A DNA stretch of 64,000 nt, taken from an uncultured Clostridia bacterium. GTDB lineage: Bacteria; Bacillota; Clostridia; Christensenellales; UBA3700. A program made the translations under genes and the position numbers. Below are positions 3,702 to 48,631 of this stretch, one piece after another. The notes under the pieces are model-generated. The model searched no databases and was not told the origin of the DNA. It was given only the letters and a program-made list of their open reading frames with translations. Location of the stretch: contig CAOKSY010000001.1 of NCBI GenBank assembly GCA_948471525.1, positions 243,465 to 307,464 of the forward strand. The letters run 5' to 3'. Every line of letters begins with the position of its first letter. The stretch's first letter is position 1.

Positions 3702-4625
3702 TTAAAAATATCCCAGCGTTACTTTCATCAAGAATCCGAAATAACTTTCTTTCGTATATGAACGAAGCAATTTGTTATTCTTCATTATTCTATGTTTCCC
3801 GCCGAGCGTATTTATATCCGCGCAAACTTTTATCAGAGGGAAATTTTTTGCCTGTTCGGGAAACTTTTCCAAAATTTCTTTCGCCAATGCGCTCCTTCCG
3901 TTGCGGAACTTCTTCTTGAAAACTTTTTTGGTTTTTTCCTTTATTTTTTTTGCAAGGCCGTCCTCGTATGCTCCGACGACGTTATTTTCGTGTTGACGGT
4001 ACTTCATAAACGATCTTTCGTCATAGATGATTCCGCCGTTGATCGACGCCGTCATCGCCAGCCACACGTCGTGAATCCTGTTGCGCAAAAGTTCCTCGGA
4101 CGGGCGGCTTTTTTTATCTGTGATCGCTTCATACAGGCTGCGCTTAAAAACCATTGTGCATCCCGCGAGCGTATTCTTCTCCAAAATCGCAATAGGGTCG
4201 AGATGTATTTGACTGTCTCTCCCATATCTCAATCCCAGAGAATTGCCGTATTTATCCACACACTCCTGATTTGAAGCATATAAAACTTTGTCGCTCTGCT
4301 CAAGCATCGCCACGGCTGCGGCAAGCTTATCTTCTTCCCATATATCATCCTGATCCGCAAACGAATAGTAATCGTGATCGCCTTCGACAGAATATAAAAG
4401 GTTCATAAAGCTGTTGCCAACGCCGACGTTTCCTTCGATAAACAACTTTACGTTGTCGTTGTCTTCCGCATAAGCGGACAGTATCTCCAGCGTGGAATCC
4501 TTTGAGCCGTCGTCTCTGATAAAAAGTTCCACATCCACTCCGGTTTGGTTGAGAATGCTGTCAATTTGTTCTTTGATAAATTTTTCGCCGTTGTACGCGC
4601 TCAACATAACCGCTACTTTACTCAT
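3702..4625 (-). CDS. Glycosyltransferase family 2
   Basis: 307 aa. GT-A signature VAVMLSAYNGEKFIKEQIDSILNQT, DDGSKD, ADQDD. Confidence 0.85.
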   Translation of the reverse strand: MSKVAVMLSAYNGEKFIKEQIDSILNQTGVDVELFIRDDGSKDSTLEILSAYAEDNDNVKLFIEGNVGVGNSFMNLLYSVEGDHDYYSFADQDDIWEEDKLAAAVAMLEQSDKVLYASNQECVDKYGNSLGLRYGRDSQIHLDPIAILEKNTLAGCTMVFKRSLYEAITDKKSRPSEELLRNRIHDVWLAMTASINGGIIYDERSFMKYRQHENNVVGAYEDGLAKKIKEKTKKVFKKKFRNGRSALAKEILEKFPEQAKNFPLIKVCADINTLGGKHRIMKNNKLLRSYTKESYFGFLMKVTLGYF

Positions 4626-30735: not shown

Positions 30736-30891
30736 ATATTTATTTTACATTATACGGATATTTTTATCAAGCGATATAAAAAATTTGAGAGATTGTACTT
30801 TTATATAATATATAATTACAAAGTGCTTTTATCGCCAAAATTAAGCGGTAAATCCATTGAAATTTCATTAATTTTATATTATAATATACGT

Positions 30892-32238
30892 ATGGAAGAA
30901 TGTAAGAAATTGTGGAATATTTTGTTGTCGGAAATATCCAATAGGATTTCAACGGTAAACTACGATATGTGGTTCAGTTCGTTGGAACCTTTGACCGTAT
31001 CTTATAACAAACTTATTATTGTTGCAAAACTCAAATCGGTCAAAAACGTAATAAACAAAGAATTCAGAAATATAGTCTGCGACGAAATAAAAAAACTCAA
31101 TTCTTATATCGACGACTTTATTATCATCACTCCCGACGAGATTTCGGTATATGAAAATCAAATCAAAGAGGAAGTAAAATTGCCCGATCCGGTAGAAAAT
31201 ACCGCCTTGTTCGACAATAATTTTACTTTCGATAAATTCGTCGTCGGTCAAAGCAACCAGATAGTGTACGTTGCCGCAAAAGCCGTAGCAAATCAACCGG
31301 GCACTCTACACAATCCCCTCTTTATTTACGGAGGCGTAGGATTGGGAAAGACCCATATAATGCACGCTATAGGAAACGAGATACTCAAAACTAATAAAAA
31401 GTCAAAGATCCTTTACTGCACTACCGAGCAATTCGTAAACGACTTTATCGACAGTATAAGAAACAATAAAGACAACGAACAAAATAAGAGATTTAGAGAA
31501 AAATACAGAAACGTTGATATCCTAATATTAGACGATATACAGTTTCTTGCGGGAAAGACAGGTACTCAGGAAGCGCTTTTCCATACTTTCAACGATCTCT
31601 ATCAAAGAAAAAAACAGATCATACTTTCTTCGGACAGGCATCCTAAAGAACTTACCTTTTTGGAAGAAAGACTTCAATCGAGATTTGCAAGCGGTCTGAC
31701 GGTAGATATATCCGCTCCCGACCTAGAGACGAGAATAGCTATACTTCAAAAGAAAGCGTTTTATAAAAACGTAAATCTGCCGATAGAAGTAGTATATTTT
31801 ATTGCGGAAAAATTCGACAGTAATATAAGAGAACTCGAAGGAGCGCTTCAAAAGGTAATATTCTACTGTCAGCTTCTGGGCAAAGAACCTGATAATATAG
31901 ATATCATAAAAGAAGCTTTGAAGGACGATATAGACGTGACTACGCATATACTCTCCCTCGACACTATAGTGGAAGCGACCTGTTCTTATTACAACATAAA
32001 AAAAGAAGAAGTCATAGGAAAGAAAAAACTTAAACCTATAGTGACGGCTAGACAGATAGCAATATATCTTATAAACGATATGCTCGGAGTTCCGCTGGCT
32101 ACTATAGGAAGTTATTTCGGCGGAAGAGATCATACTACTATCATCTACGCTAGAGATAAGATTGAAGAATTGATCAAGACAGACAATCTGACTGCCAATC
32201 AGATAAAAGATATAAAAAACATGATACAAAAGAGATAA
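30892..32238 (+). CDS. dnaA: Chromosomal replication initiator DnaA
   Basis: Start at ATG 30892 (448 aa). GGVGLGKTH, ILILDDIQF, C-terminal DNA-binding region RQIAIYLINDML...GGRDHTTIIYA. Confidence 0.95.
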   Translation: MEECKKLWNILLSEISNRISTVNYDMWFSSLEPLTVSYNKLIIVAKLKSVKNVINKEFRNIVCDEIKKLNSYIDDFIIITPDEISVYENQIKEEVKLPDPVENTALFDNNFTFDKFVVGQSNQIVYVAAKAVANQPGTLHNPLFIYGGVGLGKTHIMHAIGNEILKTNKKSKILYCTTEQFVNDFIDSIRNNKDNEQNKRFREKYRNVDILILDDIQFLAGKTGTQEALFHTFNDLYQRKKQIILSSDRHPKELTFLEERLQSRFASGLTVDISAPDLETRIAILQKKAFYKNVNLPIEVVYFIAEKFDSNIRELEGALQKVIFYCQLLGKEPDNIDIIKEALKDDIDVTTHILSLDTIVEATCSYYNIKKEEVIGKKKLKPIVTARQIAIYLINDMLGVPLATIGSYFGGRDHTTIIYARDKIEELIKTDNLTANQIKDIKNMIQKR

Positions 32239-32313
32239 TACAATATTTTTAAGTCCAATGATTATATAAAAATAAAAACCGTCGGACATAAAATTACACT
32301 GTATATTTCTCTT

Positions 32314-32423
32314 TGTGGAAAGTGTGGATAACTAAATAATCTTATCAACATATTTTGGTATATAAATGTTGATGTTTTTTTAGAATATGGGTCGATTAAA
32401 GACACTTATCAACACTATCAACA
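32314..32423. promoter_or_regulatory. DnaA-box cluster in the dnaA-dnaN spacer (oriC-like)
   Basis: Perfect TGTGGATAA at 32323-32331. TTATCAACA (1 mismatch) at 32342 and 32406. Weaker boxes at 32314 and 32415. Confidence 0.65.
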
Positions 32424-32437
32424 CAGTTATTATGGTG

Positions 32438-32478
32438 ATTATTATCTAATCAATATAAAATAAATAATATATTATAAG
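32438..32478. promoter_or_regulatory. A+T-rich tract, candidate DNA-unwinding element
   Basis: attattatctaatcaatataaaataaataatatattataag lies directly after the box cluster, as in the Bacillus dnaA-dnaN origin half. Confidence 0.45.
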
Positions 32479-32497
32479 CATCAAGAGGTGAACAAGT

Positions 32498-33604
32498 ATG
32501 AAATTTGTATGTAACGGAACCGATCTGTCGGACGCTTTGTCAAAAGTAATGAAGGCATTGCCGTCCAAGAAAAGTATGCCTATTTTGGAAGGAATAAAGT
32601 TTAGCGCTTTCGGAGATACACTTACTATAATGGCTACCGATATAGATTTTGTGGTTATTATGAAAATCAAAGCGGATATTATAATGGAAGGAGAAGTATT
32701 AGTCCCCGGAAGAACTATATGCGAATATATAAGAAAAATAAGCAAGGAAAACTATATAGAGTTTGATTCTCAAGTAGAAAACGATAAACTCTATATATCT
32801 CACTGCGACAGCTTTATTTATCTTGCTACGATGAATATCAGCGAATACCCCGCTATAGAAGAACTTGAATACGATATGGTAATGAATATCAAACAGAAAG
32901 ATTTCAAAGATCTCGTAAACAAAACGATATTCGCTACTTCTACCGAAGATATAAGACAGCAGCTCAGAGGTTGTCTCTTCTCCGTCAATAAAAATAAAGT
33001 AAGAACGGTAGGTCTCGACGGCTATAGACTTGCTATTTGCAATAAAGAATTGAAAGAAGAATATCCTGTAAAAGATATTATAGTTCCTGCAAAGAGCTTG
33101 AGCGAAATTGCTAAACTTTTTGAAAACGAAGACGACGAACTCAAGGTAAGCATAAACGATAAAAAGATGATGGTAGAGTTTGACAACAGCAAGATCATTA
33201 CGTCTCTTATTGCAGGTCAGTATATTAGATATGAATCTACTATACCTACCAACTTCGAGACTGAAGTGACTGTAGACAGAGCTAGCCTCGAATACAGTAT
33301 GGATAAGGTAGACGTAATTGCAAAGCAGGATAAAAACAACTATATAAAAATGGACATAAAAGAAGGAAAAATGACCATCTACTGCAATACGAGCTACAGC
33401 AATATAAAGGAAGTTATAAATACTTTTACGAAGGGTAAAGACGTTACGGTAAGTCTCAATGCAAAATATCTCACCGACTGTATCAAAAACAGCCACGACG
33501 AATATCTTTCAATAAAGATATCCAACAGCAATAATCCTATAGTTATTACTCCGATAGAAAGCGAAGAATATCTCTATCTCATACTTCCTATAAGAACGAG
33601 ATAA
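32498..33604 (+). CDS. dnaN: DNA polymerase III beta sliding clamp
   Basis: 368 aa, canonical length and N-terminus MKFVCNGTDLSDALSKV, immediately downstream of dnaA. Confidence 0.95.
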   Translation: MKFVCNGTDLSDALSKVMKALPSKKSMPILEGIKFSAFGDTLTIMATDIDFVVIMKIKADIIMEGEVLVPGRTICEYIRKISKENYIEFDSQVENDKLYISHCDSFIYLATMNISEYPAIEELEYDMVMNIKQKDFKDLVNKTIFATSTEDIRQQLRGCLFSVNKNKVRTVGLDGYRLAICNKELKEEYPVKDIIVPAKSLSEIAKLFENEDDELKVSINDKKMMVEFDNSKIITSLIAGQYIRYESTIPTNFETEVTVDRASLEYSMDKVDVIAKQDKNNYIKMDIKEGKMTIYCNTSYSNIKEVINTFTKGKDVTVSLNAKYLTDCIKNSHDEYLSIKISNSNNPIVITPIESEEYLYLILPIRTR

Positions 33605-33624
33605 TTAAAACAGATAAGTGAAAT

Positions 33625-33655
33625 AAAAAAGATCCTTTTCAAAGGATCTTTTTTA
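33625..33655. terminator. Bidirectional terminator (dnaN / parB convergent)
   Basis: AAAAGATCCTTT-tc-AAAGGATCTTTT. Confidence 0.65.
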
Positions 33656-33672
33656 ATGTTTATATTTTTATT

Positions 33673-34536
33673 TTAAAGTTTATTGATAAGATCGAATATT
33701 CTGTCGAGATCAGCCATTGAATAATAGTCGATATATATTCTGCCCTTGTTGTTATTGCCTACGGCGTTTACTTTTGTGCCGAACTTTTTCTGCATAACGT
33801 TGGCAAGATCTTTTAATTCAACGGAAATTTCTTGAACTTTTTGCTGTTTTTTGTTGGGATTGAGATAATTTCTCACCATAAGTTCCAACTGTCTTACGCT
33901 GAGTTGTTTGTCGCATGCGGCGATAGCATAAGTATTCTGAACTATATAGTCCTTTATAGATGAAAGACATCTTGCGTGACCAGCGGATAATCTTCCGTTG
34001 ATGACCATATCTATTACTACAGGATTGAGATTGAGAAGTCTAAGAGAATTAGCAATAACAGGTCTTGATTTACCAAGTCTGTCGGCAAGCTGCTCCTGAG
34101 TAAAATCGTATTCGTCTATAAGCGCTTTATAAGCCTGCGCTTCTTCTATAGGATTGAGATCCTGTCTCTGAAGATTTTCTATGAGAGATATCTCTTTTAT
34201 TTGTTTTCTTGTAAGTTCTTTTACTATAGCGGGAATAGTTGTGTTTCCTGCTATTTTATTTGCTCTGAATCTTCTTTCGCCCGCTACTATCTCATAATTG
34301 CCGTCTTCTGTCGGACTTACTATGATAGGTTGGATAACTCCGTAATTTTTAATTGATACGGAAAGTTCTTCCAAAAGGTTCTGATCGAATTTTTTTCTCG
34401 GTTGATTGGGATTTGTAACAATTTTGTTTATTGACAAAATTTCTACGCCTGCGTTTAGATTTCCGTTTTTGTCAAATGACGTGATATTGGAATCTATATT
34501 AAGCATTCTTTCGATAGTCGAATTTTCTTTTGTCAT
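33673..34536 (-). CDS. parB: ParB/Spo0J-family partition protein (Noc-type paralog not excluded)
   Basis: 287 aa. ParB box AGERRFRA and HTH TQEQLADRLGKSRPVIANSLRLL. Confidence 0.88.
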   Translation of the reverse strand: MTKENSTIERMLNIDSNITSFDKNGNLNAGVEILSINKIVTNPNQPRKKFDQNLLEELSVSIKNYGVIQPIIVSPTEDGNYEIVAGERRFRANKIAGNTTIPAIVKELTRKQIKEISLIENLQRQDLNPIEEAQAYKALIDEYDFTQEQLADRLGKSRPVIANSLRLLNLNPVVIDMVINGRLSAGHARCLSSIKDYIVQNTYAIAACDKQLSVRQLELMVRNYLNPNKKQQKVQEISVELKDLANVMQKKFGTKVNAVGNNNKGRIYIDYYSMADLDRIFDLINKL

Positions 34537-34663
34537 AGGTATGCCTCCACTCTAAGCAGTTATGATAACATCAACCGTAAGCCGTATTAGACGGGCTGAT
34601 AAAACTGAACAGCGTTATCTTCTATATTATATCAAATAAAATCTCTATATGCAAGTGAAAATA

Positions 34664-35371
34664 TTATCCGACAATAGGTTGAAGTCGAGGTTTATTTCCG
34701 CCTCTCGGGTATTTGTCGGAACAATTTTCTATCTTTTTTATACAAATAAGATATCTTTTTTCGTCATTTGACAAAATATATTCTCTTACGTAGTCTATCT
34801 TTGAATTTAAGAGGCAAATAATTTTTTTTGATATATCCAATTCTTCTTTATAATTTATTCCTTTATAAGCAATCAATACCCCGTTTTTTCTCAATAAAGG
34901 AAGAGTATATTCCGCCAAAGTAGGCATTTGAGCGACGGCTCGCGCTATGCAGCAATCGAATTTTTGAAAGTTGGATCTAGAAAAATCCTCTATTCTCGAA
35001 TGATAAGCAGTGACGTTTTTGATACAAAGATTTTTGATTATTTCTTCTATAAAAGTTATCTTTTTATTTACGCTGTCAATGAGAGTAAAATTTATATCGG
35101 GATTAACTATTGCCAGCGGTATACTTGGAAATCCGGCTCCGCATCCTATGTCGCATATAGATGAATAATTTTGTATATCGACGTTTGCCGACAGACTGTC
35201 TATAAAATGTTTTATCTGTATATCTTCTATATCGGTAATAGAAGTAAGATTGAATTTATTGTTCCATTCCAAGAGAATATCGCAATAAATTTCAAATTTA
35301 TTTATTAATTCGGGTATGTTTTCGTATTTATTGTCTATTAGATATTTTTCCAGTAAATTTAGTCTTGTCAT
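34664..35371 (-). CDS. rsmG: 16S rRNA (guanine527-N7)-methyltransferase RsmG
   Basis: 235 aa. SAM motif DIGCGAGFPSIPLAI. 1-nt gap after mnmG. Confidence 0.9.
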   Translation of the reverse strand: MTRLNLLEKYLIDNKYENIPELINKFEIYCDILLEWNNKFNLTSITDIEDIQIKHFIDSLSANVDIQNYSSICDIGCGAGFPSIPLAIVNPDINFTLIDSVNKKITFIEEIIKNLCIKNVTAYHSRIEDFSRSNFQKFDCCIARAVAQMPTLAEYTLPLLRKNGVLIAYKGINYKEELDISKKIICLLNSKIDYVREYILSNDEKRYLICIKKIENCSDKYPRGGNKPRLQPIVG

Positions 35372-35372
35372 A

Positions 35373-37244
35373 TCAGTTATTTTTGTTTTTAGAAAGATAT
35401 ACGAGAAGTACCGTTATATCCGCAGGAGATACTCCGCTTATTCTCGACGCCTGTCCGAGATTAGAAGGTCTGATCTTATCGAGTTTTTGTCTCGCTTCTA
35501 TTCTAAGACCTTTTATAAGAGAATAATCTAAATATTGAGGTAAAGACTTGGATTCCAATTTATCTACGTCGGCAATGATATTTTTTTGCTTTGACAGATA
35601 ACCTTCGTATTTTATTTCTACCGCTACTTCTTCAAAACATCTTCTGTCGAGATTTGAAAGCTCATCAAAATTATCCATCAAGAGATCGTAAGTGATTGCA
35701 GAACGCTTTAACATATCTCTATAAGAGAGACCGTTGTGAGGGATAGGTTCGCCTAATTTTTCAAAGAAATCTTTAAAATCTTTAGGAGATATAATCTTTT
35801 CAAGAGTCTTTTTTATCAAAGACGATTTGTTTTCTTTTTCGCAGAATTTATTCCATCTCGTATCGTCTACAAGTCCTATCTCTCTTCCCGACGGCGTGAG
35901 TCTTCTGTCGGCGTTTTCCTGTCTTAAAATAAGTCTGTGCTCCGCTCTTGCGGTCATCATTCTATAAGGTTCGTTGGTGCCTTTCGTCACCAGATCGTCG
36001 ATCAGAACTCCTATATAAGAGCTGTCTCTTTTGAGAATAAAAGGTTGTTTGTTTTGTATATACAAAGAAGCGTTGATTCCTGCGACTAGACCTTGCGCCG
36101 CCGCTTCTTCGTATCCGCTGCTGCCGTTGAGCTGTCCTGCCAAAAACAAACCCTCAATATTTTTTACCATAAGATAAGGAGTAAGCGCGAGAGAATCTAT
36201 ACAGTCGTATTCTATAGCGTAAGCGAATCTGAGTATTTTGACTTTTTCGAGACCTATAACGGATCTGTACATCTCAAGCTGAACGTCAAACGGCAGAGAC
36301 GAACTCATACCCTGTACGTACATCTCGTTGGTAAGACTGCTTTCAGGTTCGATAAATATTTGATGACGTTCTTTGTCAGCAAATCTCATTACTTTATCTT
36401 CGATAGAAGGACAGTATCTCGGACCAATGCTGTGTATAGATCCGTTATATAGAGGCGAACGGTCAATATTTGACGTAATTATATCCTTTGTCTTTTGAGT
36501 AGTGTAAGTGAGATAACATACGTCTTTGTTGGGCACGAATCCTTCCGTCATGAAAGAAAACGGATATATATCGTCGTCGCCTTTCTGTACTTGCATTACG
36601 TCGAAATTTATAGAATTTTTGTCTACTCTGGCAGGCGTGCCCGTCTTAAATCTTCTTGTTGGAATTCCGAGAGATATTAGACTGTCGGTGAGCTTTGTAG
36701 CGCGGGAAAAACCGTTGGGACCCGTATGCGTAACGTTGTCGCCGATAATTATATTTGCATTGAGATAAACGCCGGTGCATACCACTATAGCGTCGCAGAA
36801 AAATTCCTGTCCGAGAGTAGTTTTTATACCTATTACTTTATCGTTTTGAGTGAGTATATCGGAGACTTCGCCTTGCAATATATCGAGGTTTTCTTGTGTC
36901 TCCATAACGTTCTTCATATAATGATGATACATGGTCTTATCGGCTTGACCTCTCAACGACTGCACTGCCGCGCCTTTACCCATATTAAGCATACGTATCT
37001 GAAGAAGATTGTTGTCGGCGGAAATACCCATCTGTCCGCCCAAAGCGTCGATTTCTCTCACTAAATGACCTTTTGCCGTTCCGCCTATAGCGGGATTACA
37101 AGCCATAAAAGCTATTGCGTCCAAAGAAAGAGTTACCGCCAAAGTCTTGTGTCCAAGACGCGCCAAAGCAAGGCTTGCTTCAACTCCCGCGTGTCCGCAA
37201 CCTATCACTATCGCGTCGTAATTTTTCTGGTAACTGTCGAGCAT
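35373..37244 (-). CDS. mnmG: tRNA uridine 5-carboxymethylaminomethyl modification enzyme MnmG
   Basis: 623 aa. FAD motif VIGCGHAGVEA, full-length GidA architecture. Confidence 0.95.
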   Translation of the reverse strand: MLDSYQKNYDAIVIGCGHAGVEASLALARLGHKTLAVTLSLDAIAFMACNPAIGGTAKGHLVREIDALGGQMGISADNNLLQIRMLNMGKGAAVQSLRGQADKTMYHHYMKNVMETQENLDILQGEVSDILTQNDKVIGIKTTLGQEFFCDAIVVCTGVYLNANIIIGDNVTHTGPNGFSRATKLTDSLISLGIPTRRFKTGTPARVDKNSINFDVMQVQKGDDDIYPFSFMTEGFVPNKDVCYLTYTTQKTKDIITSNIDRSPLYNGSIHSIGPRYCPSIEDKVMRFADKERHQIFIEPESSLTNEMYVQGMSSSLPFDVQLEMYRSVIGLEKVKILRFAYAIEYDCIDSLALTPYLMVKNIEGLFLAGQLNGSSGYEEAAAQGLVAGINASLYIQNKQPFILKRDSSYIGVLIDDLVTKGTNEPYRMMTARAEHRLILRQENADRRLTPSGREIGLVDDTRWNKFCEKENKSSLIKKTLEKIISPKDFKDFFEKLGEPIPHNGLSYRDMLKRSAITYDLLMDNFDELSNLDRRCFEEVAVEIKYEGYLSKQKNIIADVDKLESKSLPQYLDYSLIKGLRIEARQKLDKIRPSNLGQASRISGVSPADITVLLVYLSKNKNN

Positions 37245-37361
37245 ATTTTATTACCTCTTTCTTGGAAAAAACAATCGAAAAGATCGCTGATTTCTGTGTT
37301 TTATTATATCATAACAACCGTTGTATTTGCAAATATTACGCGCTTGTGATATAATATTATT

Positions 37362-38690
37362 ATGAATACCGTAGCAACTATTTCTACCCCGATAGGTCGC
37401 GGAGCGATAGCTATAGTGAGAATGAGCGGAGACAACGCGTTAAGTATTGCGGCAAGTTTGTTTGAATGTAAAAAACTTGCCTCTTTTTGCGACGCTGTTC
37501 CCAACTATATGTATTATGGAAGCATTACTGCGGGTAAGGTCAAGGATAACGTGCTTGCCGTCTATTTTAAAGCGCCTCACTCATATACGGGAGAAGATGT
37601 GGTAGAGTTTCAGTGTCACGGCGGAATTAGACTTGTCGACGAAATTCTTAAGGGCTGTATCGAAAACGGAGCGGCTGTCGCCGATAAGGGAGAATTCACC
37701 AAGAGAGCTTTTCTCAACGGCAAGATAGCGCTGAGCGACGCTGAAGGAATAATCGATATGATAAACGGCGAGAGCATAGCCTCGCTCAATGCCGGATACA
37801 GACTTTCCAAAGGATATATAGCGCAAGAGATAAGCGCTATTCAAGAGAAATTACTCGATTGTATTTCAGAACTCGAGGCAAGCCTCGACTATCCCGAAGA
37901 AATGGAAGAAGAGGCAAAACAGAATTCTCAAAAGACTGTAAAAGAAGAGATACGCGCTTTAGAAAAATTATATTCGTCTTCCCGATCGGGCGGATATATC
38001 CGTCAGGGAATAAGCGTGGCGATAGTAGGACAAGCCAACGTCGGCAAGTCTTCTCTGCTCAACGCGTTTTTAGGAAGAGACAGAGCTATAGTCACAGATA
38101 TTGCTGGCACTACCAGAGACAGTCTCGAAGAGTATACGGAAGTCGACGGAATAATGCTAAAACTGATAGATACCGCGGGAATAAGAGATACGGACGACGT
38201 CGTGGAATCTATCGGCGTAGAAAGAAGTATAGAAGCCGCCAAAGGCAGCGATATAGTGCTGTTTGTCACAGAGGCCGGAAGAGAACTCAACGACTACGAA
38301 AGATCGCTTATATCGCAATTTGACAAAGACAGTAAATTGATGCTTGTGATAAACAAGTGCGATAAGGCGGACGACAGTAGAGACGGCGCGCATATAAGTG
38401 CCAAAAACGGCAAAGGAGTGACGCAGTTAAAAAAATCTATAGTCGACGCATTTATTGATAAAAATATCGACGCAAACGGCGATATAATCACAAACGTAAG
38501 ACACGCACAAGCGATAAAAATGTCTCTCGACGCTTTGAAAAACGCTTTTATGAATATAGACGATATGCCCACCGAATGCACGTTGATCGATTTGAGAGAA
38601 GCATATTTTGCGCTCGGAGAGATCACCGGAAATACCGCAAGCGAAGATATTATCGATACTATATTTTCAAAATTCTGTCTCGGCAAATAA
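37362..38690 (+). CDS. mnmE: tRNA modification GTPase MnmE
   Basis: 442 aa. GQANVGKSSLLNA, DTAGIR, NKCD, C-terminal CLGK. Confidence 0.95.
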   Translation: MNTVATISTPIGRGAIAIVRMSGDNALSIAASLFECKKLASFCDAVPNYMYYGSITAGKVKDNVLAVYFKAPHSYTGEDVVEFQCHGGIRLVDEILKGCIENGAAVADKGEFTKRAFLNGKIALSDAEGIIDMINGESIASLNAGYRLSKGYIAQEISAIQEKLLDCISELEASLDYPEEMEEEAKQNSQKTVKEEIRALEKLYSSSRSGGYIRQGISVAIVGQANVGKSSLLNAFLGRDRAIVTDIAGTTRDSLEEYTEVDGIMLKLIDTAGIRDTDDVVESIGVERSIEAAKGSDIVLFVTEAGRELNDYERSLISQFDKDSKLMLVINKCDKADDSRDGAHISAKNGKGVTQLKKSIVDAFIDKNIDANGDIITNVRHAQAIKMSLDALKNAFMNIDDMPTECTLIDLREAYFALGEITGNTASEDIIDTIFSKFCLGK

Positions 38691-38749
38691 TAATTTATAT
38701 AATATCAATTTAAAATTATTTGTCTTTTTTCAATTAATGAGGAAATTAT

Positions 38750-38893
38750 ATGAAAAATTATGAACTGGTACCCTATTGCGACAGCGATCACGACAGTTAT
38801 ATAAAAAGTCAGTTGGAGGCTTTTACAAAATATATAAGTGAGTTTTTCGGCAAGTGCGACGTATCGATAATGGAAGGTCATTTGAAGATATGA
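38750..38893 (+). pseudogene. 47-aa ORF with RBS, possibly a remnant of a longer gene
   Basis: GAGGAAATTATATG. The product MKNYELVPYCDSDHDSYIKSQLEAFTKYISEFFGKCDVSIMEGHLKI resembles the start of an acetyltransferase-type protein and stops early. Not in the ORF track. Confidence 0.2.
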
Positions 38894-38935
38894 AAACCTT
38901 ATCTATTCAAAATTACTGTCCGAGACGAATTATTA

Positions 38936-38973
38936 GTATAAAAATGCCGCTCCTTGGTTTCAAACGGAGCGGC
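38936..38973 (-). terminator. Terminator of the rpmH...jag transcription unit
   Basis: GCCGCTCC...GGAGCGGC stem, followed on the minus strand by ATTTTTATA. Confidence 0.55.
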
Positions 38974-39058
38974 GTAATATTTGAGTATTAAGAACTTTAG
39001 AAAACAAACTGAGTTTTTTACTTTAAAAGTATTTTAGTATGAATTCTTACTCTGCAGA

Positions 39059-39844
39059 TTAAAAGAACTTTTTCATATCGCCGCCGTAAGATTTCATTCT
39101 GGTTACGCCGGTCTTATTAAAGTTGCGGGGTTCTTTTTCCTGAGCCTGTTGATTTGACGGAGCCGATTGCTTTGGTCTTGCAGGACGGTCTCCGCCGCGT
39201 CTTTCTCTGCCTTCATTATTGCGGTCTCTTTTATCGAAAGAAGGCTTTTTTGGAGCGATAACGACGTATCTGTTGGGTTCTTCTCCGTGGCTTTCCGTTG
39301 TGACGAATCTGTCGTCGTGAAGAGCGGAGTGGATAATTCTTCTTTCAAAAGGATTCATAGGCTCCAGAGATTCCGCCTTGCGGTTTTTAGCTACTCTGAA
39401 TGCGATCTTTTTAGCGAGTTTTGAAAGCGTGGCAATACGTTTTGCGCGATAGTTTTCTCCGTCGATTACAAGTCTCTTGCCCATAGGGTTGTCCTTATTT
39501 ACGACCAAGAGAGAAAGGTACTGCAAAGAGTCGAGTACGTCTCCTCTGTATCCGATAAGCACGCCCGTATCGTCTCCCGAAAGAGATATGTAGAATGCGT
39601 CTTCCTTTTCCTCTACCGTTGCCTCGCACTTGATGCCCATTCTCTGTATTATACCGTTGATAAAGTCGTTTACAAGAGTTGCGCCGCTTACCTTTTGCGT
39701 TACTTTTACAGTGACTTTTTTGCGGATAAGCCCCGTCTCTTTGATCTTTTCCGCTTCTACCTGACTTTCGTCAAGTCCCAGTTCTTCCAAAGCCTGCTTA
39801 AGCGCTTCGGCATAACTGTTTGCAGTAATTTCTATACTTTTCAT
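39059..39844 (-). CDS. jag: Jag/KhpB RNA-binding protein (Jag_N, KH, R3H)
   Basis: 261 aa. R3H region ERRIIHSAL, basic Arg/Gly-rich tail, located downstream of yidC. Confidence 0.85.
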   Translation of the reverse strand: MKSIEITANSYAEALKQALEELGLDESQVEAEKIKETGLIRKKVTVKVTQKVSGATLVNDFINGIIQRMGIKCEATVEEKEDAFYISLSGDDTGVLIGYRGDVLDSLQYLSLLVVNKDNPMGKRLVIDGENYRAKRIATLSKLAKKIAFRVAKNRKAESLEPMNPFERRIIHSALHDDRFVTTESHGEEPNRYVVIAPKKPSFDKRDRNNEGRERRGGDRPARPKQSAPSNQQAQEKEPRNFNKTGVTRMKSYGGDMKKFF

Positions 39845-39896
39845 ATATATCTCCTCAAAGACGCCATCGCGTCCTTTTGTGTAATAATCGATCTTG

Positions 39897-41054
39897 TTAT
39901 TTTTTCTTTTTATCGTTGTTCTTTGCGCCGAAATAAGTCTTCTGTGAAGAAGAGGATACTGTGACGGCTGAGTTGGTTTTTTTCTCGTCGGATTTCTTTG
40001 CGATTATATTGAATATAAGAGTAACTATTGTCATAAACAGATTGCTCATAAAGTAATATATCGCAAATGCCGCGCTGTATACGATCGCGAAAAATCCGAG
40101 TACCAACGGCATAAGATACGTCATTATTTTATTCATCATCTTCTGTTGCTTTTGCTGAGCTTCGTCGCCTGTAGTCATAGGTTGCATAGGCTGAAGTTTC
40201 TGCTGAAGCATAGTAGAGAAAAAGCTTGTCAGTATCGAAAGTATCGGCAAGATGAAATATCCGTTCCAGTTGCCCATATCGAAGAATTTCTTCTTGTTGT
40301 ACGCATTGATGATAGGAGACATCAATTCGTTATAGCACGTGCCGGGCAATTCGGGTATCGTAGCCGCAATTCCGCCGAAGCCCGTAGCCTCGAAGTTCTT
40401 CTGACTGGGAATTACGTTGGCAAACGTGTCTGACATAAATACGTTCTTTACCCACAGCCAGCTTTCGGGCTTGTATCCGTCAACAAGAGCCGCGTTGAGC
40501 TGCTCGACTAAGCCTGCGTTTTCAATCAAATTATACGACGGTATGGAGACAAGTTTTCCCGCTTCGACCACGGTCTGTCCCGCCGCGGCGTTTATAGCGT
40601 CGGCGTTTTCTATAAAGAAATTGACGTACAGCGCGTATTGATTGCTTACTATCTCTTCGTTTTTGGAAATGATATATTCTCTGAAACCTTGGAAGATAAG
40701 AGCGAATATCACCAACGTAAAGATCATCGGCAAACAAGATGCAAACATATTGATATGCGCGGATTTTTGCAGTTCGAACTGCTTTTGACGCAGTATATCC
40801 GGTCTGTTGGCGTACTGTCTTTGCAGTTTTTCCATCTGCGGACGCAACGCGTCCATCTTGGCCTTCTGTTTGCGCATGCTGATCTTTTGCCATATGTCGA
40901 ATGGCGTGAGTAAAAGCCTCAGCAAAAGAGTGAAGACCACTACCGTCCAACCGAAATTGCCGATGCCTTTGTTCATCCAATCCAACAACTTTATAATAGG
41001 TTGCCAGACGGAGCTTACGGCAGCCAGCATATTACTTAAATTCATAATAGCCAT
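39897..41054 (-). CDS. yidC: Membrane protein insertase YidC
   Basis: 385 aa, multi-TM, canonical position after yidD/rnpA, Lys-rich C-terminus. Confidence 0.9.
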
Positions 41055-41281
41055 TTTGCGTTTCCTTTAAAATCGTCTTTGACGGGATCGTATCCGCCTT
41101 TTGAAAAGGGATTGCATCTCAATATTCTCGCTATACCCTGCGCCGTGCCGCGAAGCCGTCCGTATTTGGCGATCGCCTGCGACATATACGCGGAACAACT
41201 CGGCGTATATTTGCACCTGTGCGGCAAAACGGGGTTTATAAACCGCTTATAATATCGAATTAATAAATTTCCGCTTTTCAT
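41042..41281 (-). CDS. yidD: Membrane protein insertion efficiency factor YidD
   Basis: Start chosen at ATG 41281 (79 aa). [19 protein letters not shown] motif. Confidence 0.8.
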
Positions 41282-41417
41282 CTTAATCTTTTTATCTTTT
41301 GACAGTTTAAAATAAGCCGTCAAAGATAATTTCTTGGTCCGATTTAGTCAAGAAAACTTTCGGACCGGGTATTTCTGTAGGCGCAAACGACAAGTTTACG
41401 CGGCTTTTTTATAAAAA

Positions 41418-41819
41418 TCAAGTATTCTGCGCGATCGACTCTCTCTTTTTCAACGAAAGTTTTTCGACCGTTTCTTCGTCAATATTATTGACCAGAAGTT
41501 TGGATTTTTTCAAAGCCTGTACGATGGAATCCGCAATTTGAGAAAAAGTCGAGTCGGCGCATTCCGCTCTCGCTATGATTATATAGTTGCATTTATCCTC
41601 GACAAACGGTATCAGTGCGCGAAATGCTTCTCTCAGACGTCTGCGAACCTTGTTTCTGACGACGGCTTTGCCTACTTTTTTGCTTACGATAAATCCTACC
41701 TTAAGCGAATATTTCGACGGCGCATAAACAAGTACAAGCCGCTTATTTGCAGTGGATACTCCTCTTCTGTGCAGATAATTGAATACTCTGCTGCTTTTGA
41801 GCCTGTACTTTTTTTGCAT
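41418..41819 (-). CDS. rnpA: Ribonuclease P protein component
   Basis: 133 aa, basic, KKVGKAVVRNKVRRRLRE. Confidence 0.88.
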   Translation of the reverse strand: MQKKYRLKSSRVFNYLHRRGVSTANKRLVLVYAPSKYSLKVGFIVSKKVGKAVVRNKVRRRLREAFRALIPFVEDKCNYIIIARAECADSTFSQIADSIVQALKKSKLLVNNIDEETVEKLSLKKRESIAQNT

Positions 41820-41826
41820 TGCAATA

Positions 41827-41961
41827 TTATGCGGTCAGTTGCTTTCTGCCCTTGTTGCGACGTCTTTTGATTACGTTTCTGCCGTTTTTGGTACGCATTC
41901 TCTCACGGAAGCCGTGAACCTTGGATCTCTGTCTTTTTTTAGGTTGATAAGTCTGTTTCAT
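41827..41961 (-). CDS. rpmH: 50S ribosomal protein L34
   Basis: Below the ORF-track cutoff. I translated [44 protein letters not shown] (44 aa). Confidence 0.9.
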
Positions 41962-42005
41962 TTTTGTATCCTCTCTTTTATATATAAATAAAATTATGCT
42001 ATATC

Positions 42006-42034
42006 AGTATATATAAATTGGAGACGGGTGTCAA
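42006..42034 (-). promoter_or_regulatory. Sigma-A-type promoter of rpmH operon (TTGACA-17-TATACT)
   Basis: On the minus strand, -35 at 42034-42029 and -10 at 42011-42006. Confidence 0.55.
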
Positions 42035-42144
42035 GTAATTTGGCGCAGTTGAATACAAATGCGTTTGGGAGCATTGACAATAAAGATGTAAAAAGCAAAA
42101 ATAATTCTTAAAATAAATGATAACGCAGTTGATTTACAGGACTT

Positions 42145-42172
42145 TTGACACAGCCCTCGGTAATACTATAAT
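42145..42172 (+). promoter_or_regulatory. Near-consensus promoter-like element (TTGACA-16-TATAAT) pointing antisense into the flavoprotein gene
   Basis: TTGACA at 42145-42150 and TATAAT at 42167-42172. No plus-strand gene follows. Confidence 0.4.
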
Positions 42173-42181
42173 GCAATAATA

Positions 42182-43213
42182 TCAAATACTCCTCATATTT
42201 TTAAACCTGTCGGACATAAACGATAACAAATGCCACTGTCGTTTCATATATTTCTCAGTTTGGGAAGCGTTTATAATATACTGTGAAATTACTTTGTTCG
42301 GGCGGTCGAAGTTCTCGGCAATGGCTTTTGCGGCGGCATATCCGCTCTCTATTGCCGACGAGATTCCTTCGCCCATAGGATTGAGAAAACCTGCGGCTTC
42401 CCCTGCGCGCAAAATCCTTTCGCATCCGTAGTCGACCGAGAAGTCGGGGCGAATACGCGGCATTATCCACTTCTCTTCCTTTACTTTTTCAAAAATATTT
42501 AAATTGTAGGACCTCTCCAAGTGAACTTTAAAAGCGCTGTAAAATCCATTTAATTTGCCGATATCGTTATTTTTGACAGCCGTTCCTATCACGAGCATAC
42601 CGTCTTTGACGTTGAGCCAAGCGTCATATTGCGAAAATTCAGGCTGAAGAAAAGCATAGAAATAATGCGGGTCGAGATCTATCGTTCCGCGAAAAAAACA
42701 TTGATATGTGACGATAAAATCTTTTTTTGACGGAGAATCGGTTAATATTATCGAATTTGCCGCTCCGCCGCAGTTGATGAAATAAGCGGCTTTTTCTCGA
42801 TATGATTTGTCAAACTCAACGTCGACGCGATCGCTGAAAGAAGCGCAGCTAATTATAGAACGGTTGTCGATCAACTTTGCTCCCGAGTCGATCGCCATAT
42901 CCGTAAGCCAGCTATCAAAAGAACTCCGCCATACGTTAAGCCCTTTTTGTTCAAAACGGTACTCATTTCCCTCGTCATTGACAAATATCATTCCTTTATT
43001 GTCTGAAGGCGCGCATTTTACGCGATCAGGTATATCCGAGCCGAAATAATCACTGATAAGTCGTATAGTTTTTTCGATTATCATACCCGAGCAAGACTTA
43101 TATCGAGGTAATTTATGTCTTTCGGTAATCAATACCGAAAAACCTTTATCTGCTAATACTTTAGCGCAAGTTGCGCCGGCTGGACCGGCGCCGGCAATAA
43201 TAACGTCGCACAT
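42182..43213 (-). CDS. FAD-dependent oxidoreductase (geranylgeranyl-reductase-like flavoprotein)
   Basis: Start at ATG 43213 (AAGGA RBS), 343 aa. DVIIAGAGPAGATCA dinucleotide-binding motif. Confidence 0.8.
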   Translation of the reverse strand: MCDVIIAGAGPAGATCAKVLADKGFSVLITERHKLPRYKSCSGMIIEKTIRLISDYFGSDIPDRVKCAPSDNKGMIFVNDEGNEYRFEQKGLNVWRSSFDSWLTDMAIDSGAKLIDNRSIISCASFSDRVDVEFDKSYREKAAYFINCGGAANSIILTDSPSKKDFIVTYQCFFRGTIDLDPHYFYAFLQPEFSQYDAWLNVKDGMLVIGTAVKNNDIGKLNGFYSAFKVHLERSYNLNIFEKVKEEKWIMPRIRPDFSVDYGCERILRAGEAAGFLNPMGEGISSAIESGYAAAKAIAENFDRPNKVISQYIINASQTEKYMKRQWHLLSFMSDRFKNMRSI

Positions 43214-43496
43214 TTTATTCCTTTTGCTGATTGATATCGCTATTATAATACCATATCGCCGGCAATATATCAAGTAATAGGTATTCAAGATCAATATAAC
43301 CAATAATTAAACACAGTGCAAAAATATATGCAGATAAAATAACTTTAAGTAAATAGTTTGATGGCGCAATATAGCCTATAATAAATAACGGAAGAAAAAT
43401 AATTAATTTTTAATATTGATTATGGGTCAATAGGCAATATGATGCTCCAATATTTATCCTAGAGCCGCTGTATTTCGTATCTAAATTTGCGAGGCA

Positions 43497-43521
43497 AAGA
43501 ATGCTTGGTAAAGCATTTTTT
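43497..43521 (+). terminator. Terminator-like hairpin plus T-run
   Basis: AATGCTT-ggta-AAGCATT followed by TTTT. Confidence 0.4.
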
Positions 43522-43627
43522 ACATACTCAGTAAATATGTGTATGTCACAATAGGCGTTACCACATCAATGTAACAGATATGGATACATAATGGGAATAA
43601 TAGCTTAAAAGGACAAGCTACTGTATT

Positions 43628-43643
43628 TGTTCCACGTGAAACG
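43628..43643. promoter_or_regulatory. parS site (ParB/Spo0J binding), 15/16 match
   Basis: TGTTCCACGTGAAACG versus the Bacillus consensus TGTTNCACGTGAAACA. Confidence 0.8.
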
Positions 43644-44147
43644 GGACAATAATTCCCAACAGTATTTGATAACTTGGATATTGTCTTGAGATGAGAATTA
43701 ATAAAACTGTCTATCCTTTCGTAAGTTTAAATGGTGCTTGTCTGCAGAGAGAAACTTAAGATTAATTGAAAACGTCTTAGATAATAGATCATAAATAGTA
43801 TGTTAGTAGTTGTGGCGACTAAGTCAACATATCAAAAGTAGTGAATTGTTGATGCAGTAATGATGCTTATATTATTCTACACGACACGTGCTTTGCCCTA
43901 TCTCAAGCAATAAAGAGATCGGCGGTAAAATAAATTTATGAAAATCTACAACGCGGCTTACTCGTATTATTTGGTTACGTAAGAGCTTAATGATTCCATA
44001 GTTTAAAGCAATGAAATATCCAGATCATCTTTCTTATCTGAAAATTGCGCTAGCACTGTCTCAAAAGTTCGGGAAAATCTATTTTTCATTTCAATTGTAA
44101 TTTTAAAATAACAAAGTTATTTTAATTTTGCCAACTTGCAGATAATG

Positions 44148-44173
44148 CAGTATGCGAATTCAATCGCATACTG
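44148..44173. other. Perfect 10-bp hairpin/inverted repeat
   Basis: CAGTATGCGA-attcaa-TCGCATACTG. Confidence 0.6.
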
Positions 44174-44335
44174 TTCTCTTCCATTCTACTCTTTTGAAGA
44201 TGACGTAATGTGACGTTGTTAGTGGCATAATAAGTATTTGAGTTGATATTAGATCTACAGGCGCTTTATATCTATTGAATCGCACGTAGCGTCATAGGAT
44301 AACTTTTATATGGTAAACTTTAACATGCGCGCAAA

Positions 44336-44344
44336 TGTGGATAA
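44336..44344 (-). promoter_or_regulatory. Perfect DnaA box
   Basis: TGTGGATAA, the complement of TTATCCACA, followed by C. Confidence 0.7.
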
Positions 44345-44392
44345 CTAGCTAGCTTAGAAATATCCAACGGACATAACAGTATGTATATATGA

Positions 44393-44408
44393 AGTTTCAC
44401 GTGCAACA
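44393..44408. promoter_or_regulatory. parS-like site, 14/16 match
   Basis: AGTTTCACGTGCAACA. Confidence 0.6.
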
Positions 44409-44452
44409 ATTTACAAAAACAAGACGGTTGCAACTATTAATGAGTGTGGAAT

Positions 44453-44461
44453 TGTGGATAA
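44453..44461 (-). promoter_or_regulatory. Perfect DnaA box
   Basis: TGTGGATAA followed by C. A degenerate TGTGGAATT lies directly upstream (44445). Confidence 0.7.
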
Positions 44462-44774
44462 CGCACAAGCAGATAACGATACCCACATATTTAATCCTAA
44501 GCAGCAGTTGCTATAAAGTAATAAAGATTAGCAACGTTCCCACCAGTATTGCTATCTACAGTGACAATCAAGTTTCACAGCGATCGGGATAGGTTTTATA
44601 TTTGCAATAACATAGTATGAAGCCTTTGCCCCTTTTTTACTGCTCTGACATTTGTCTGTTCATCTATGACTGATGGATATTGCGTATATCTATTGGATCT
44701 ATTCCATCGCTAAATCATACTGTGCTCTGTCGTACTCCCAATGGCATAACGGAACCGTATTGTGTCAGGTCAAG

Positions 44775-44802
44775 TTATCTTGCTGAGATTTATCTTGAGA
44801 TC
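44775..44802 (+). repeat. Adjacent direct repeat TTATCTTG(CT)GAGAT
   Basis: TTATCTTGCTGAGAT is immediately followed by TTATCTTGAGATC. Confidence 0.6.
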
Positions 44803-44880
44803 TGCTGAATACACTGTAATATTAGCGATTTAAGGTAGAAATTGAGTTGTTTCATGACAGGTTGTCTTGCTTGTCCAAAT

Positions 44881-44896
44881 TGTTTCCTGTGAAACA
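44881..44896. promoter_or_regulatory. parS-like site, 14/16 match
   Basis: TGTTTCCTGTGAAACA, with mismatches only at the two central-left positions. Confidence 0.6.
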
Positions 44897-45024
44897 TTAT
44901 TGAGACATCTATATTCTAAAAACGACGATTCTAGCACTTTATTTTCTCAAATTGGGTGATTTTGCTAGACAATTACTGATATATTTCTGTATAAAATTGG
45001 CTGTCTTGCTACTTTTTCAGGCTT

Positions 45025-45047
45025 TGTTTCACGATTTTTGTGAAACA
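45025..45047. promoter_or_regulatory. Split parS: both half-sites perfect, separated by 7 bp
   Basis: TGTTTCAC-gattttt-GTGAAACA. The arms extend to 9 bp (TTGTTTCAC/GTGAAACAA). Confidence 0.5.
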
Positions 45048-45102
45048 ATTTGGCGATTAAAAATACGACTATATTTCGTTGGTTTTAGTATTATATCTAC
45101 TG

Positions 45103-45128
45103 AAAATGGCATGTTTTTGCCATTTTTT
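45103..45128. terminator. Terminator-like hairpin (bidirectional form)
   Basis: AAAATGGCA-tgtttt-TGCCATTTT plus extra Ts. Confidence 0.5.
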
Positions 45129-45175
45129 ACTGAACAGGTTCAATAATTTCAAATTTTCAAAGATAAAATCCGATT

Positions 45176-45235
45176 TTGAATAAATTAACTGATAAAGTTT
45201 ATAATTAATACTGTAGATATTTTAGTAGATCTACT
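45176..45235 (+). promoter_or_regulatory. Promoter (TTGAAT-18-TATAAT) and 12-bp palindrome AGTAGATCTACT upstream of the 48-aa ORF
   Basis: -35 at 45176-45181, -10 at 45200-45205, perfect palindrome at 45224-45235 between the -10 and the RBS. Confidence 0.45.
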
Positions 45236-45251
45236 CTATCGGGAGGGAAAT

Positions 45252-45398
45252 ATGCCTAGATGTATAATTTGCAACAGACACATCGAATATGAAAATGCAT
45301 ATATGTGCGATAAATGCAACAGTTGTACGTGCGCGGAATGCATTATAAGGTATGGCAAAGACTGCGATTGCGGCGGTAGATTGCATCACGTAAATTAA
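45252..45398 (+). CDS. 48-aa cysteine-rich (11 Cys) zinc-ribbon-like small protein
   Basis: Below the ORF-track cutoff. GGGAGGG RBS 4 nt upstream. MPRCIICNRHIEYENAYMCDKCNSCTCAECIIRYGKDCDCGGRLHHVN. Has its own promoter and terminator. Confidence 0.55.
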   Translation: MPRCIICNRHIEYENAYMCDKCNSCTCAECIIRYGKDCDCGGRLHHVN

Positions 45399-47908: not shown

Positions 47909-48631
47909 ATGCCAACGTGGAATCCGTGGCGAGGTTGTCAAAAATATAGCGAAGGTTGCAAATATTGTTATATCCATAAAGGGGATTTCAAACGGAAGAT
48001 CGATACGAACGATATCGTAAAGACGGATAATTTTTATGCTCCCATAGCCAAGAATAAATCGGGCGAATATAAAATCAAATCGGGGCAGACGGTGTATCTT
48101 TGCTTTTCCACGGATTTTTTGATTGAGGAAGCCGATGACTGGCGGTCGGAATGTTGGCAGATGATCAGGGAGCGTTCCGATTTGCACATTTTGTTTTTAA
48201 CAAAACGCATCGAGCGGTTTATGGATTGCATACCCGATGATTGGCAAGACGGATACGACAACGTTACCGTAGGATGTACGGTAGAGAATCTCTTTATTAT
48301 GATTATAAAACTTAAACTGTTGCGTGAAAAGCGGAATTACGCGATTTACAAGGCGTTGGGATATACTATCGTCGACATAATGACGCAGATAGCGATCTCT
48401 ATGGTCATACTGGGCGCGATAGGAAGTCTGGTAGGGGCGCTGGTCGGGGCGTTTACTACGTCCCCCATACTGTCGCTATTCGGCGGATATATCGGCGCGG
48501 GGCATTTTGATTTTGTGATACCGTGGGGATTTACCGTTGCGATAATTTTCGGTATTTGCGCGTTGGTTTATCTTGTTTCTATGCTTTGCGCGATATCGGT
48601 AAGACGTATCCGACCGGCTATGGAAAGATAA
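47909..48631 (+). pseudogene. Chimeric ORF: N-terminal half of a phage Gp37/Gp68-like (DUF5131) protein fused in frame to the C-terminal TM bundle of an FtsX-type ABC permease
   Basis: MPTWNPWRGCQKYSEGCKYCY... runs to about residue 128. Then LLREKRNYAIYKALGYTIVDIMTQIAISMVILGAIGSLVGA... is FtsX-like. The junction is near 48290-48310. Confidence 0.55.

Follow-up and report, generated by a model that had tools for sequence, protein, structure and literature searches.

ParB clamps load at parS sites and subsequently slide, and what limits or anchors the complex in cells is debated. The chromosomal parS of Firmicutes, TGTTNCACGTGAAACA, is reportedly the site of ParB (Spo0J), a description attributed to Lin & Grossman 1998 and Livny et al. 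2007. In vitro, engineered parS sites with 1–8 bp inserted between the half-sites left the affinity of ParB unchanged and did not stimulate CTP hydrolysis (Antar et al. 2021, PMC8494293), as determined with Bacillus subtilis ParB on synthetic sites. Here, we analyzed a 64-kb stretch of DNA from an uncultured Clostridia bacterium (the window; coordinates are positions in it), in which a gene-free, A+T-rich gap between a flavoprotein gene and a small open reading frame (ORF), orf48, contains parS sites and DnaA boxes. Judged from its sequence, this gap (the island) is probably a cis-acting, origin-proximal chromosome centromere with a DnaA-box module, a reading to which we assign a probability of about 0.6. 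It would represent a new architectural variant of the ParB–parS centromere. Homologous and metagenome loci retrieved for comparison are given L-numbers.

A candidate centromere in a gene-free island

An earlier note, made from the sequence alone, had described the gap as origin/centromere-type DNA with parS-like 16-mers at 43628, 44393 and 44881. All three were recovered, with 1, 1–2 and 2 mismatches to the consensus, respectively, and were the sole matches with ≤3 mismatches in the 64 kb. The palindromic 16-bp sites matching TGTTNCACGTGAAACA occurred above chance, with six strand-hits in the window versus 0.08 expected from shuffles. The 7-mer half-site (GTTTCAC/GTGAAAC) was likewise confined to the gap (6/6 window copies). 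A candidate trans-acting partner was found in a ParB/Spo0J gene located 9 kb from the island. Its product contained the Pfam domains ParB_N, HTH_ParB and ParB_C, scored above the cut-off of the NCBIfam model parB_part and had B. subtilis Spo0J (6SDK) as its best Protein Data Bank (PDB) match. With its helix–turn–helix domain and intact GERRFRA and ENLQR motifs, the protein had the features of a cognate ParB with an N-terminal CTP-binding motif. The island lay 11–13 kb from dnaA–dnaN, inside the skew transition zone. With parS sites unique to the interval and far above chance, a conserved order of elements and a canonical ParB nearby, the centromere-type assignment is well supported.

Relatives were retrieved with YidC as the synteny anchor, because homologues of the flavoprotein were not syntenic (L011–L021, from GTDB genomes, without parS, rpmH-side genes or the gap) and had been rejected for this purpose. 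YidC homologues with 51–79% identity yielded loci L022–L029; same-species contigs (L001–L010, 99.96–100% identical) carried no comparative signal. The homologues were named as metagenome-assembled genomes of uncultured Clostridia, Christensenellales or Eubacteriales. Between yabP/yabQ/orf48 and rpmH, these relatives likewise had a gene-free stretch of 2–5 kb; such a gap was present in ≥10 related uncultured Clostridia (documented in L022–L029 and L069) and measured at least 2 kb in all species examined (YidC identities, 51–98%). In each of nine related loci, the parS sites with ≤2 mismatches were all located in the equivalent gap (2–3 per species). All relatives examined had 2–3 contiguous sites plus a split site in the syntenic gap. 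Among eight species, the 8-mer GTGAAACA had 31 copies in the gaps (23 kb) and none outside them (141 kb). The conservation check on the rpmH–yabP interval that the earlier note had proposed showed that the elements keep their order: split parS, parS#1, a module of parS#2 between DnaA boxes, and parS#3. In pairwise blastn comparisons of the gaps, only short conserved blocks (A, B and C; Table 1) aligned. The filler between them was unalignable, including in the comparison of L022 with L026, despite 92% identity of their YidC proteins. In a sister clade (L038, L067 and L074), the split site was situated beside rpmH and the equivalent gap contained 3–4 parS sites.

The system resembles the ParB–parS systems of Firmicutes in its 16-bp palindrome, origin-proximal position, CTP-binding-type ParB and multiple sites. 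In contrast to B. subtilis, where parS sites are scattered inside genes, all sites here were packed into a single gene-free island of 2–5 kb. Further differences are that the contiguous sites were all imperfect while the split site was perfect, and that most of this clade had no ParA gene beside parB. Half-parS heptamers related to GTTTCAC are bound by ParB of Pseudomonas aeruginosa (PMC5961200, PMC10419367); those are numerous and dispersed genome-wide, whereas the half-sites here were nearly absent outside the island and paired at 7 bp.

The split parS and the DnaA-box module

The earlier note had also listed a split parS at 45025, and both of its half-sites proved to be perfect. Relatives of both Clostridia clades shared the perfect half-sites, apart from a single mismatch in L029, and the spacer of the split site was 7 bp long in all loci. 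Although spacers of 0–12 bp were allowed in the half-site search, spacers of 0 bp or 7 bp were found exclusively across loci. Measured start to start, the split parS and parS#1 were 150–152 bp apart in all but one of 16 loci representing two clades; in the exception, L029, the distance was 161 bp, one helical turn more. The 128-bp linker between the two sites had AA/TT dinucleotides phased at 10.5 bp (z = 18.7 when pooled and 2.6–8.5 per species), and the six strongest 128-bp phasing windows of the 64 kb all started within 44897–45009. Because of this sharp phasing, the linker is probably intrinsically curved. In parS#1, one half-site was invariant among species and the other was variable. The parS of plasmid P1 is said to be a bent centromere with a site for integration host factor (IHF), from the work of Funnell and co-workers. 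Both arrangements have ParB-recognition motifs on two arms with bent DNA between them, by which distant sites are brought together. In the island, unlike in P1, the bend would be intrinsic to phased A/T tracts over 128 bp, and a chromosomal-type ParB is encoded.

Split sites were also found elsewhere. Of 45 metagenome loci matching ATGTTTCACAAANNNNGTGAAAC, which included Patescibacteria, 29 had parS nearby. In approximately 20 loci, 2–5 near-perfect parS sites with a spacing of 52–75 bp had a split site on either side (among them L035 6576–6950, L048, L051, L066, L050, L056, L033, L036, L043, L047, L059 and L061). In these Patescibacteria-like contigs, the spacers of the two bracketing split sites were mutual reverse complements (AAGTTTT and AAAACTT). 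In L031, whose DnaA was closest to Paceibacterota/Patescibacteria proteins, a bracketed array (450–700) was located approximately 2.6 kb upstream of dnaA–dnaN. Nine matches in viral contigs were roughly the number expected by chance, according to a rough estimate, and were discarded. No paper describing a split or interrupted parS was found in the literature. Like the engineered spacer parS (PMC8494293), the split site in the window had intact half-sites (0 mismatches) and a spacer (7 bp) within the tested range of 1–8 bp. It differs from those synthetic constructs in being natural, kept across species and positioned at the edge of parS clusters (bracketing them in Patescibacteria). It also has a conserved A-tract spacer and a partner site at a fixed 151 bp, and its behaviour with the cognate ParB is a prediction.

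The earlier note had reported perfect DnaA boxes (TGTGGATAA) at 44336 and 44453, and both are present; C is the next base after each of them and after the box at 32323. Together with a box at 4252, these make four perfect boxes in the window versus 0.31 expected. The gap has two perfect boxes and one with 3 mismatches. Its two perfect boxes agree with the composition of a DnaA-box cluster (DBC)/datA-like locus, defined as at least two consensus boxes in non-coding DNA near oriC. In block B, the tandem boxes were followed, after 53 bp, by parS#2, the TTATGTCC-N4-GG-N-TATT motif and the DnaA box at 44336, and these distances were kept to within 2 bp in L022–L026. Alignments and a motif scan revealed the same motif again near parS#3 in relatives. 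The perfect gap boxes were missing in L027, L028, L029 and L069. Assignments of minor motifs to Spo0A boxes or CIRCE gave poor matches and were dropped. DnaA-box clusters near but outside oriC occur in B. subtilis (PMC3245932), and DnaA boxes of the Pseudomonas oriCII lie at gidAB–parAB (PMC13438810). Those clusters, which have genetic links to Spo0J/ParB, resemble the boxes in the island in being consensus boxes in non-coding DNA close to, and distinct from, the unwinding origin. The boxes in the island differ in that they flank parS at fixed distances (53 bp and approximately 63 bp, start to start) and occur in only part of the clade.

In the sister clade, the gap contained 4–5 perfect DnaA boxes within approximately 175 bp (L074 7646–7821, L038 7089–7264 and L067 3948–4103). 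These box clusters were inside the rpmH–yabP gap and far from any dnaA in the retrieved DNA. The filler between the parS sites of these gaps was extremely G+T-rich on one strand over 1.5 kb (L074 5540–7100, also L038 and L067), with a GC skew of +0.45 to +0.54 and a TA skew of approximately +0.3, exceeding the skew of the flanking genes, and turned A-rich at the first perfect parS.

From the observed architecture, statistics and conservation, we infer all protein binding and function as follows. The three contiguous parS sites would serve as loading points for ParB, a CTP-dependent clamp that would then spread over the surrounding gene-free DNA. At the split parS, ParB is predicted, from the in vitro behaviour of spacer parS, to dock while its clamp stays open. 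The split parS, the 128-bp curved DNA and the degenerate parS#1 would together make up a unit of fixed length (151 bp) where the island borders orf48, and the most likely role of this unit is that of a static anchor or boundary for ParB. The DnaA boxes around parS#2 would constitute a DnaA-binding module, either a relic of an rpmH-side oriC or a regulatory DnaA-box cluster, and unwinding for replication would take place approximately 11 kb away, in the dnaA–dnaN spacer.

More tentatively, the split parS may be a distinct and widespread class of centromere element, at which ParB docks without loading and which anchors or bounds the sliding-clamp complex. If this is true, the split site in the Clostridia lineage would work together with a weak parS, the two forming a curved unit of 151 bp, and in Patescibacteria split sites would enclose the parS arrays. 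The gene-free island would in that case be reserved for ParB and shielded from transcription, with the boxes on either side of the middle parS coupling it to DnaA. The hallmarks of the split site are near-invariant half-sites as opposed to imperfect contiguous parS sites, a position at the cluster edge in two very distant lineages, and curved DNA of fixed length leading to a weak parS. A natural match to a parS that "binds but does not load" would offer a concrete sequence for tests of boundaries and anchors. In addition, a common gut Clostridia lineage in which dnaA–dnaN, the centromere and the rpmH cluster are rearranged would amount to a natural experiment on the separability of origin, DnaA-box clusters and centromere.

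Replication start and alternative explanations

For the placement of the unwinding site, the definition of the basal unwinding system (BUS; PMC8287927) was used: ≥3 DnaA-trios and an A+T-rich DNA unwinding element (DUE) within 16 bp after a DnaA box, conserved in relatives. Such a module was found in the dnaA–dnaN spacer, where tandem boxes (32406–32423; TTATCAACA-C-TATCAACA) were followed by seven NTN triplets (32426–32446) and an A+T-rich tract. The boxes of this spacer were of the types TGTGGATAA and TTATCAACA, and its mean column identity among 6 species was 70%. In the gap, at most two NTN triplets followed the boxes and there was no conserved DUE. The cumulative GC skew had its minimum at 31656 (31.66 kb), with a plateau to approximately 45 kb. 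The total sense-strand GC skew of the genes from parB through the flavoprotein gene was approximately 0, like that of known lagging-strand genes (leading-strand genes, approximately +0.15), although per-gene skews are indirect and confounded by codon bias. Per-gene GC skew at third codon positions (GC3) was discarded as uninformative for origin placement, as housekeeping genes on both strands shared the same sense-strand C3 bias. Because of the conserved BUS-like module, the skew minimum and the sense-strand skews, unwinding is favoured at the dnaA–dnaN spacer, which is most likely the site where it occurs, approximately 11 kb from the island. The recF–dnaA intergenic region (30736–30891, 156 bp) contained no DnaA box with ≤1 mismatch, so dnaA itself lacks the box cluster that usually precedes it. 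Relative to their neighbours, dnaA–dnaN and mnmE were inverted (30892–43213), an arrangement conserved in L023–L029.

The gap could instead be the chromosomal origin itself, or the essential half of a bipartite origin together with the dnaA–dnaN spacer, representing an ancestral rpmH-side oriC that was left behind on relocation of dnaA–dnaN. This would account for the two perfect boxes of the same orientation with their degenerate tandem box and conserved distances in L022–L026, for the A+T-richness, for the position beside rpmH, the usual neighbour of oriC, and for the flat cumulative skew between 32 and 45 kb. The reversal of gene orientation at the gap and, in the sister clade, the 4–5 perfect boxes and the compositional switch also fit. 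However, the gap has 2–3 boxes, its perfect boxes are absent from four relatives, neither a run of DnaA-trios nor a conserved A+T-rich DUE follows them, and both the conserved BUS-like module and the skew minimum lie elsewhere; the genes in between have a lagging-strand-like skew. An unwinding origin in the gap, as entertained in the earlier note, is unlikely. The related proposal, in which the present gap is what an ancestral oriC left of its rpmH-side half, is still plausible, because the sister-clade gap retains 4–5 perfect DnaA boxes. Compared with the bipartite oriC of B. subtilis, Helicobacter pylori and Clostridioides difficile (PMC3479198, PMC7561715), there are likewise two DnaA-box regions, one with an unwinding element beside dnaA. 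Here, the separation would be approximately 11 kb and ten genes rather than one gene, and the distal part has 2–3 boxes and is dominated by parS.

Two further explanations concern the DNA between the sites. According to one, function resides solely in the short parS and DnaA sites, the filler being neutral or decaying sequence within an integration hotspot, and the gene-free state serves no purpose of its own. Variation in gap length from 2 to 5 kb, evolution too fast for alignment, insertion of the flavoprotein gene in two lineages only (the window and L024) and the presence beside the gap of a serine recombinase (L024) and restriction–modification genes (L027) agree with this. Against it, tblastx among the gaps detected no frame-specific conservation except for uncalled orf48 copies, and blastn detected no similarity of the gap to plasmids or phages. 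Together with the absence of Pfam matches in the small ORFs, this led to the rejection of a pseudogene or mobile-element remnant, and the check for decayed coding sequence named in the earlier note gave no trace. Moreover, neutral DNA is normally deleted from compact genomes, whereas a gap of at least 2 kb persisted in all species examined. We regard purely neutral filler as improbable, more so than an origin in the gap.

The other explanation, raised in the earlier note as a long structured RNA, is that the gap is a locus for non-coding RNA, either a single long one or several short ones, and that the DNA motifs are incidental. It draws on weak ends consisting of a hairpin plus T-run on the plus strand (43521 and 45128), on a mild plus-strand G+T excess in the window and relatives that is extreme in the sister clade and could reflect transcription, and on promoter-like sites, which were no commoner in the gap than in shuffled sequence. 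No Rfam model matched the gap or the gaps of seven relatives at the gathering threshold, and at E ≤ 10 the window gap gave chance-level matches only. Covariance models and structure did not place the gap among large structured non-coding RNAs (OLE, GOLLD, ROOL, HEARO, raiA and others). RNAalifold, applied to block A only, returned the parS palindromes as the sole consensus pairs, without covariation (covariation term +0.03). Folding z-scores over the whole gap (−0.62 and −0.25) were similar to those of coding controls, and outside the protein-site blocks even close species were unalignable. The hairpins noted previously at 44148–44173, 45103–45126 and 43497–43521 were present, but they were not conserved in relatives and were not flagged by a terminator scan. 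An RNA function of the gap is very improbable, the least probable of the alternatives weighed here.

Several points also count against a centromere. Each contiguous parS was 1–2 bases off consensus. In the window, parB directly followed rsmG without parA/soj (33673–35371), and tblastn found no ParA in the 64 kb when queried with the ParA from L029, which is more distantly related and has parA–parB. Block A is located just upstream of the orf48 promoter, and its curvature could be a promoter feature instead. Gene orientation flips at the gap and not at dnaA–dnaN; with an origin at dnaA–dnaN, approximately 10 kb of housekeeping genes (parB, rsmG, mnmG, jag, yidC, rnpA and rpmH) would therefore be head-on to replication. 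Finally, parS sites are usually intragenic, and a centromere role alone leaves a gene-free state of 2–5 kb unexplained.

Window layout and neighbouring genes

The gene order of the window was assigned by Pfam and NCBIfam scans (Table 1). As proposed in the earlier note, the gap is without a credible ORF and more A+T-rich than its flanks: within 43304–45230, ORFs of at least 30 amino acids (aa) spanned merely 30–67 aa and had no Pfam matches, and the G+C content was 0.327 in the gap versus 0.395 in the flanks. An assembly artefact was excluded because ten independent assemblies agreed at 99.96–100% identity over the region. Two details of the note did not hold. The stretch 45130–45215 was described as nearly pure A/T, which was overstated (approximately 79% A+T), and the recurring words (CTTGAGAT, AGATCTAC and others) were found elsewhere in the window as well, without enrichment in the gap.

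Table 1. Positions of genes and sequence elements in the window, in order along the plus strand
Feature	Position	Strand	Remark
gyrA, gyrB, recF		minus	profile scans
dnaA	30892–32238	plus	
dnaA–dnaN spacer	32239–32497	plus	boxes at 32323, 32342, 32406
dnaN	32498–33604	plus	
parB, then rsmG and mnmG	parB 33673–34536	minus	
mnmE		plus	
jag, yidC, rnpA, rpmH		minus	
Flavoprotein gene	42182–43213	minus	
Gene-free A+T-rich gap	43214–45251		whole putative centromere island, flavoprotein gene start to orf48
parS#3, TGTTCCACGTGAAACG	43628–43643		block C; conserved right flank GGGAATTA; aligned with relatives
Perfect DnaA box, TTATCCACA	44336–44344	minus	about 50 bp from parS#2
Conserved motif, TTATGTCC-N4-GG-N-TATT	44359–44376	minus	between parS#2 and DnaA box
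parS#2, AGTTTCACGTGCAACA	44393–44408		block B; centre of DnaA box–parS–DnaA box module
Tandem DnaA boxes, perfect TTATCCACA and degenerate AATTCCACA	44445–44461	minus	53 bp from parS#2
Block A	about 44850–45170		conserved
parS#1, degenerate TGTTTCCTGTGAAACA	44881–44896		block A
Predicted curved DNA, 128 bp	44897–45024		10.5-bp phased AA/TT; joins parS#1 to split parS
Split parS, TGTTTCAC-GATTTTT-GTGAAACA	45025–45047		two perfect half-sites, 7-bp A/T-tract spacer
Palindrome, TTGAAC-NN-GTTCA(A)	45130–45143		conserved; 95–107 bp from split parS, just upstream of orf48 promoter
Promoter-like site TTGAAT-18-TATAAT and orf48	45176–45398	plus	orf48 adjoins island in the window's clade
orf48	45252–45398	plus	
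Weak YabQ-like gene and yabP		minus	tRNA beyond

The product of orf48 was a cysteine-rich protein of 48 aa with nine cysteines and without a match to any family. Homologues with 64–70% identity were present in L030, L069 and L073, and uncalled copies in L022, L025, L026 and L028. In the window's clade, orf48 was located directly at the split-parS end of the island. Further downstream, a 240-aa ORF (47909–48631) showed an odd pairing of domains, with DUF5131 in its N-terminal part and the C-terminal domain of an FtsX permease in the rest. DUF5131 genes were also found near the gap of L027, beside the restriction–modification genes. On the other side of the gap, L022 (12795–14578) and L026 (12342–13905) had an insertion between jag and mnmE of small HTH_3 (XRE-type) genes, five or six in tandem.

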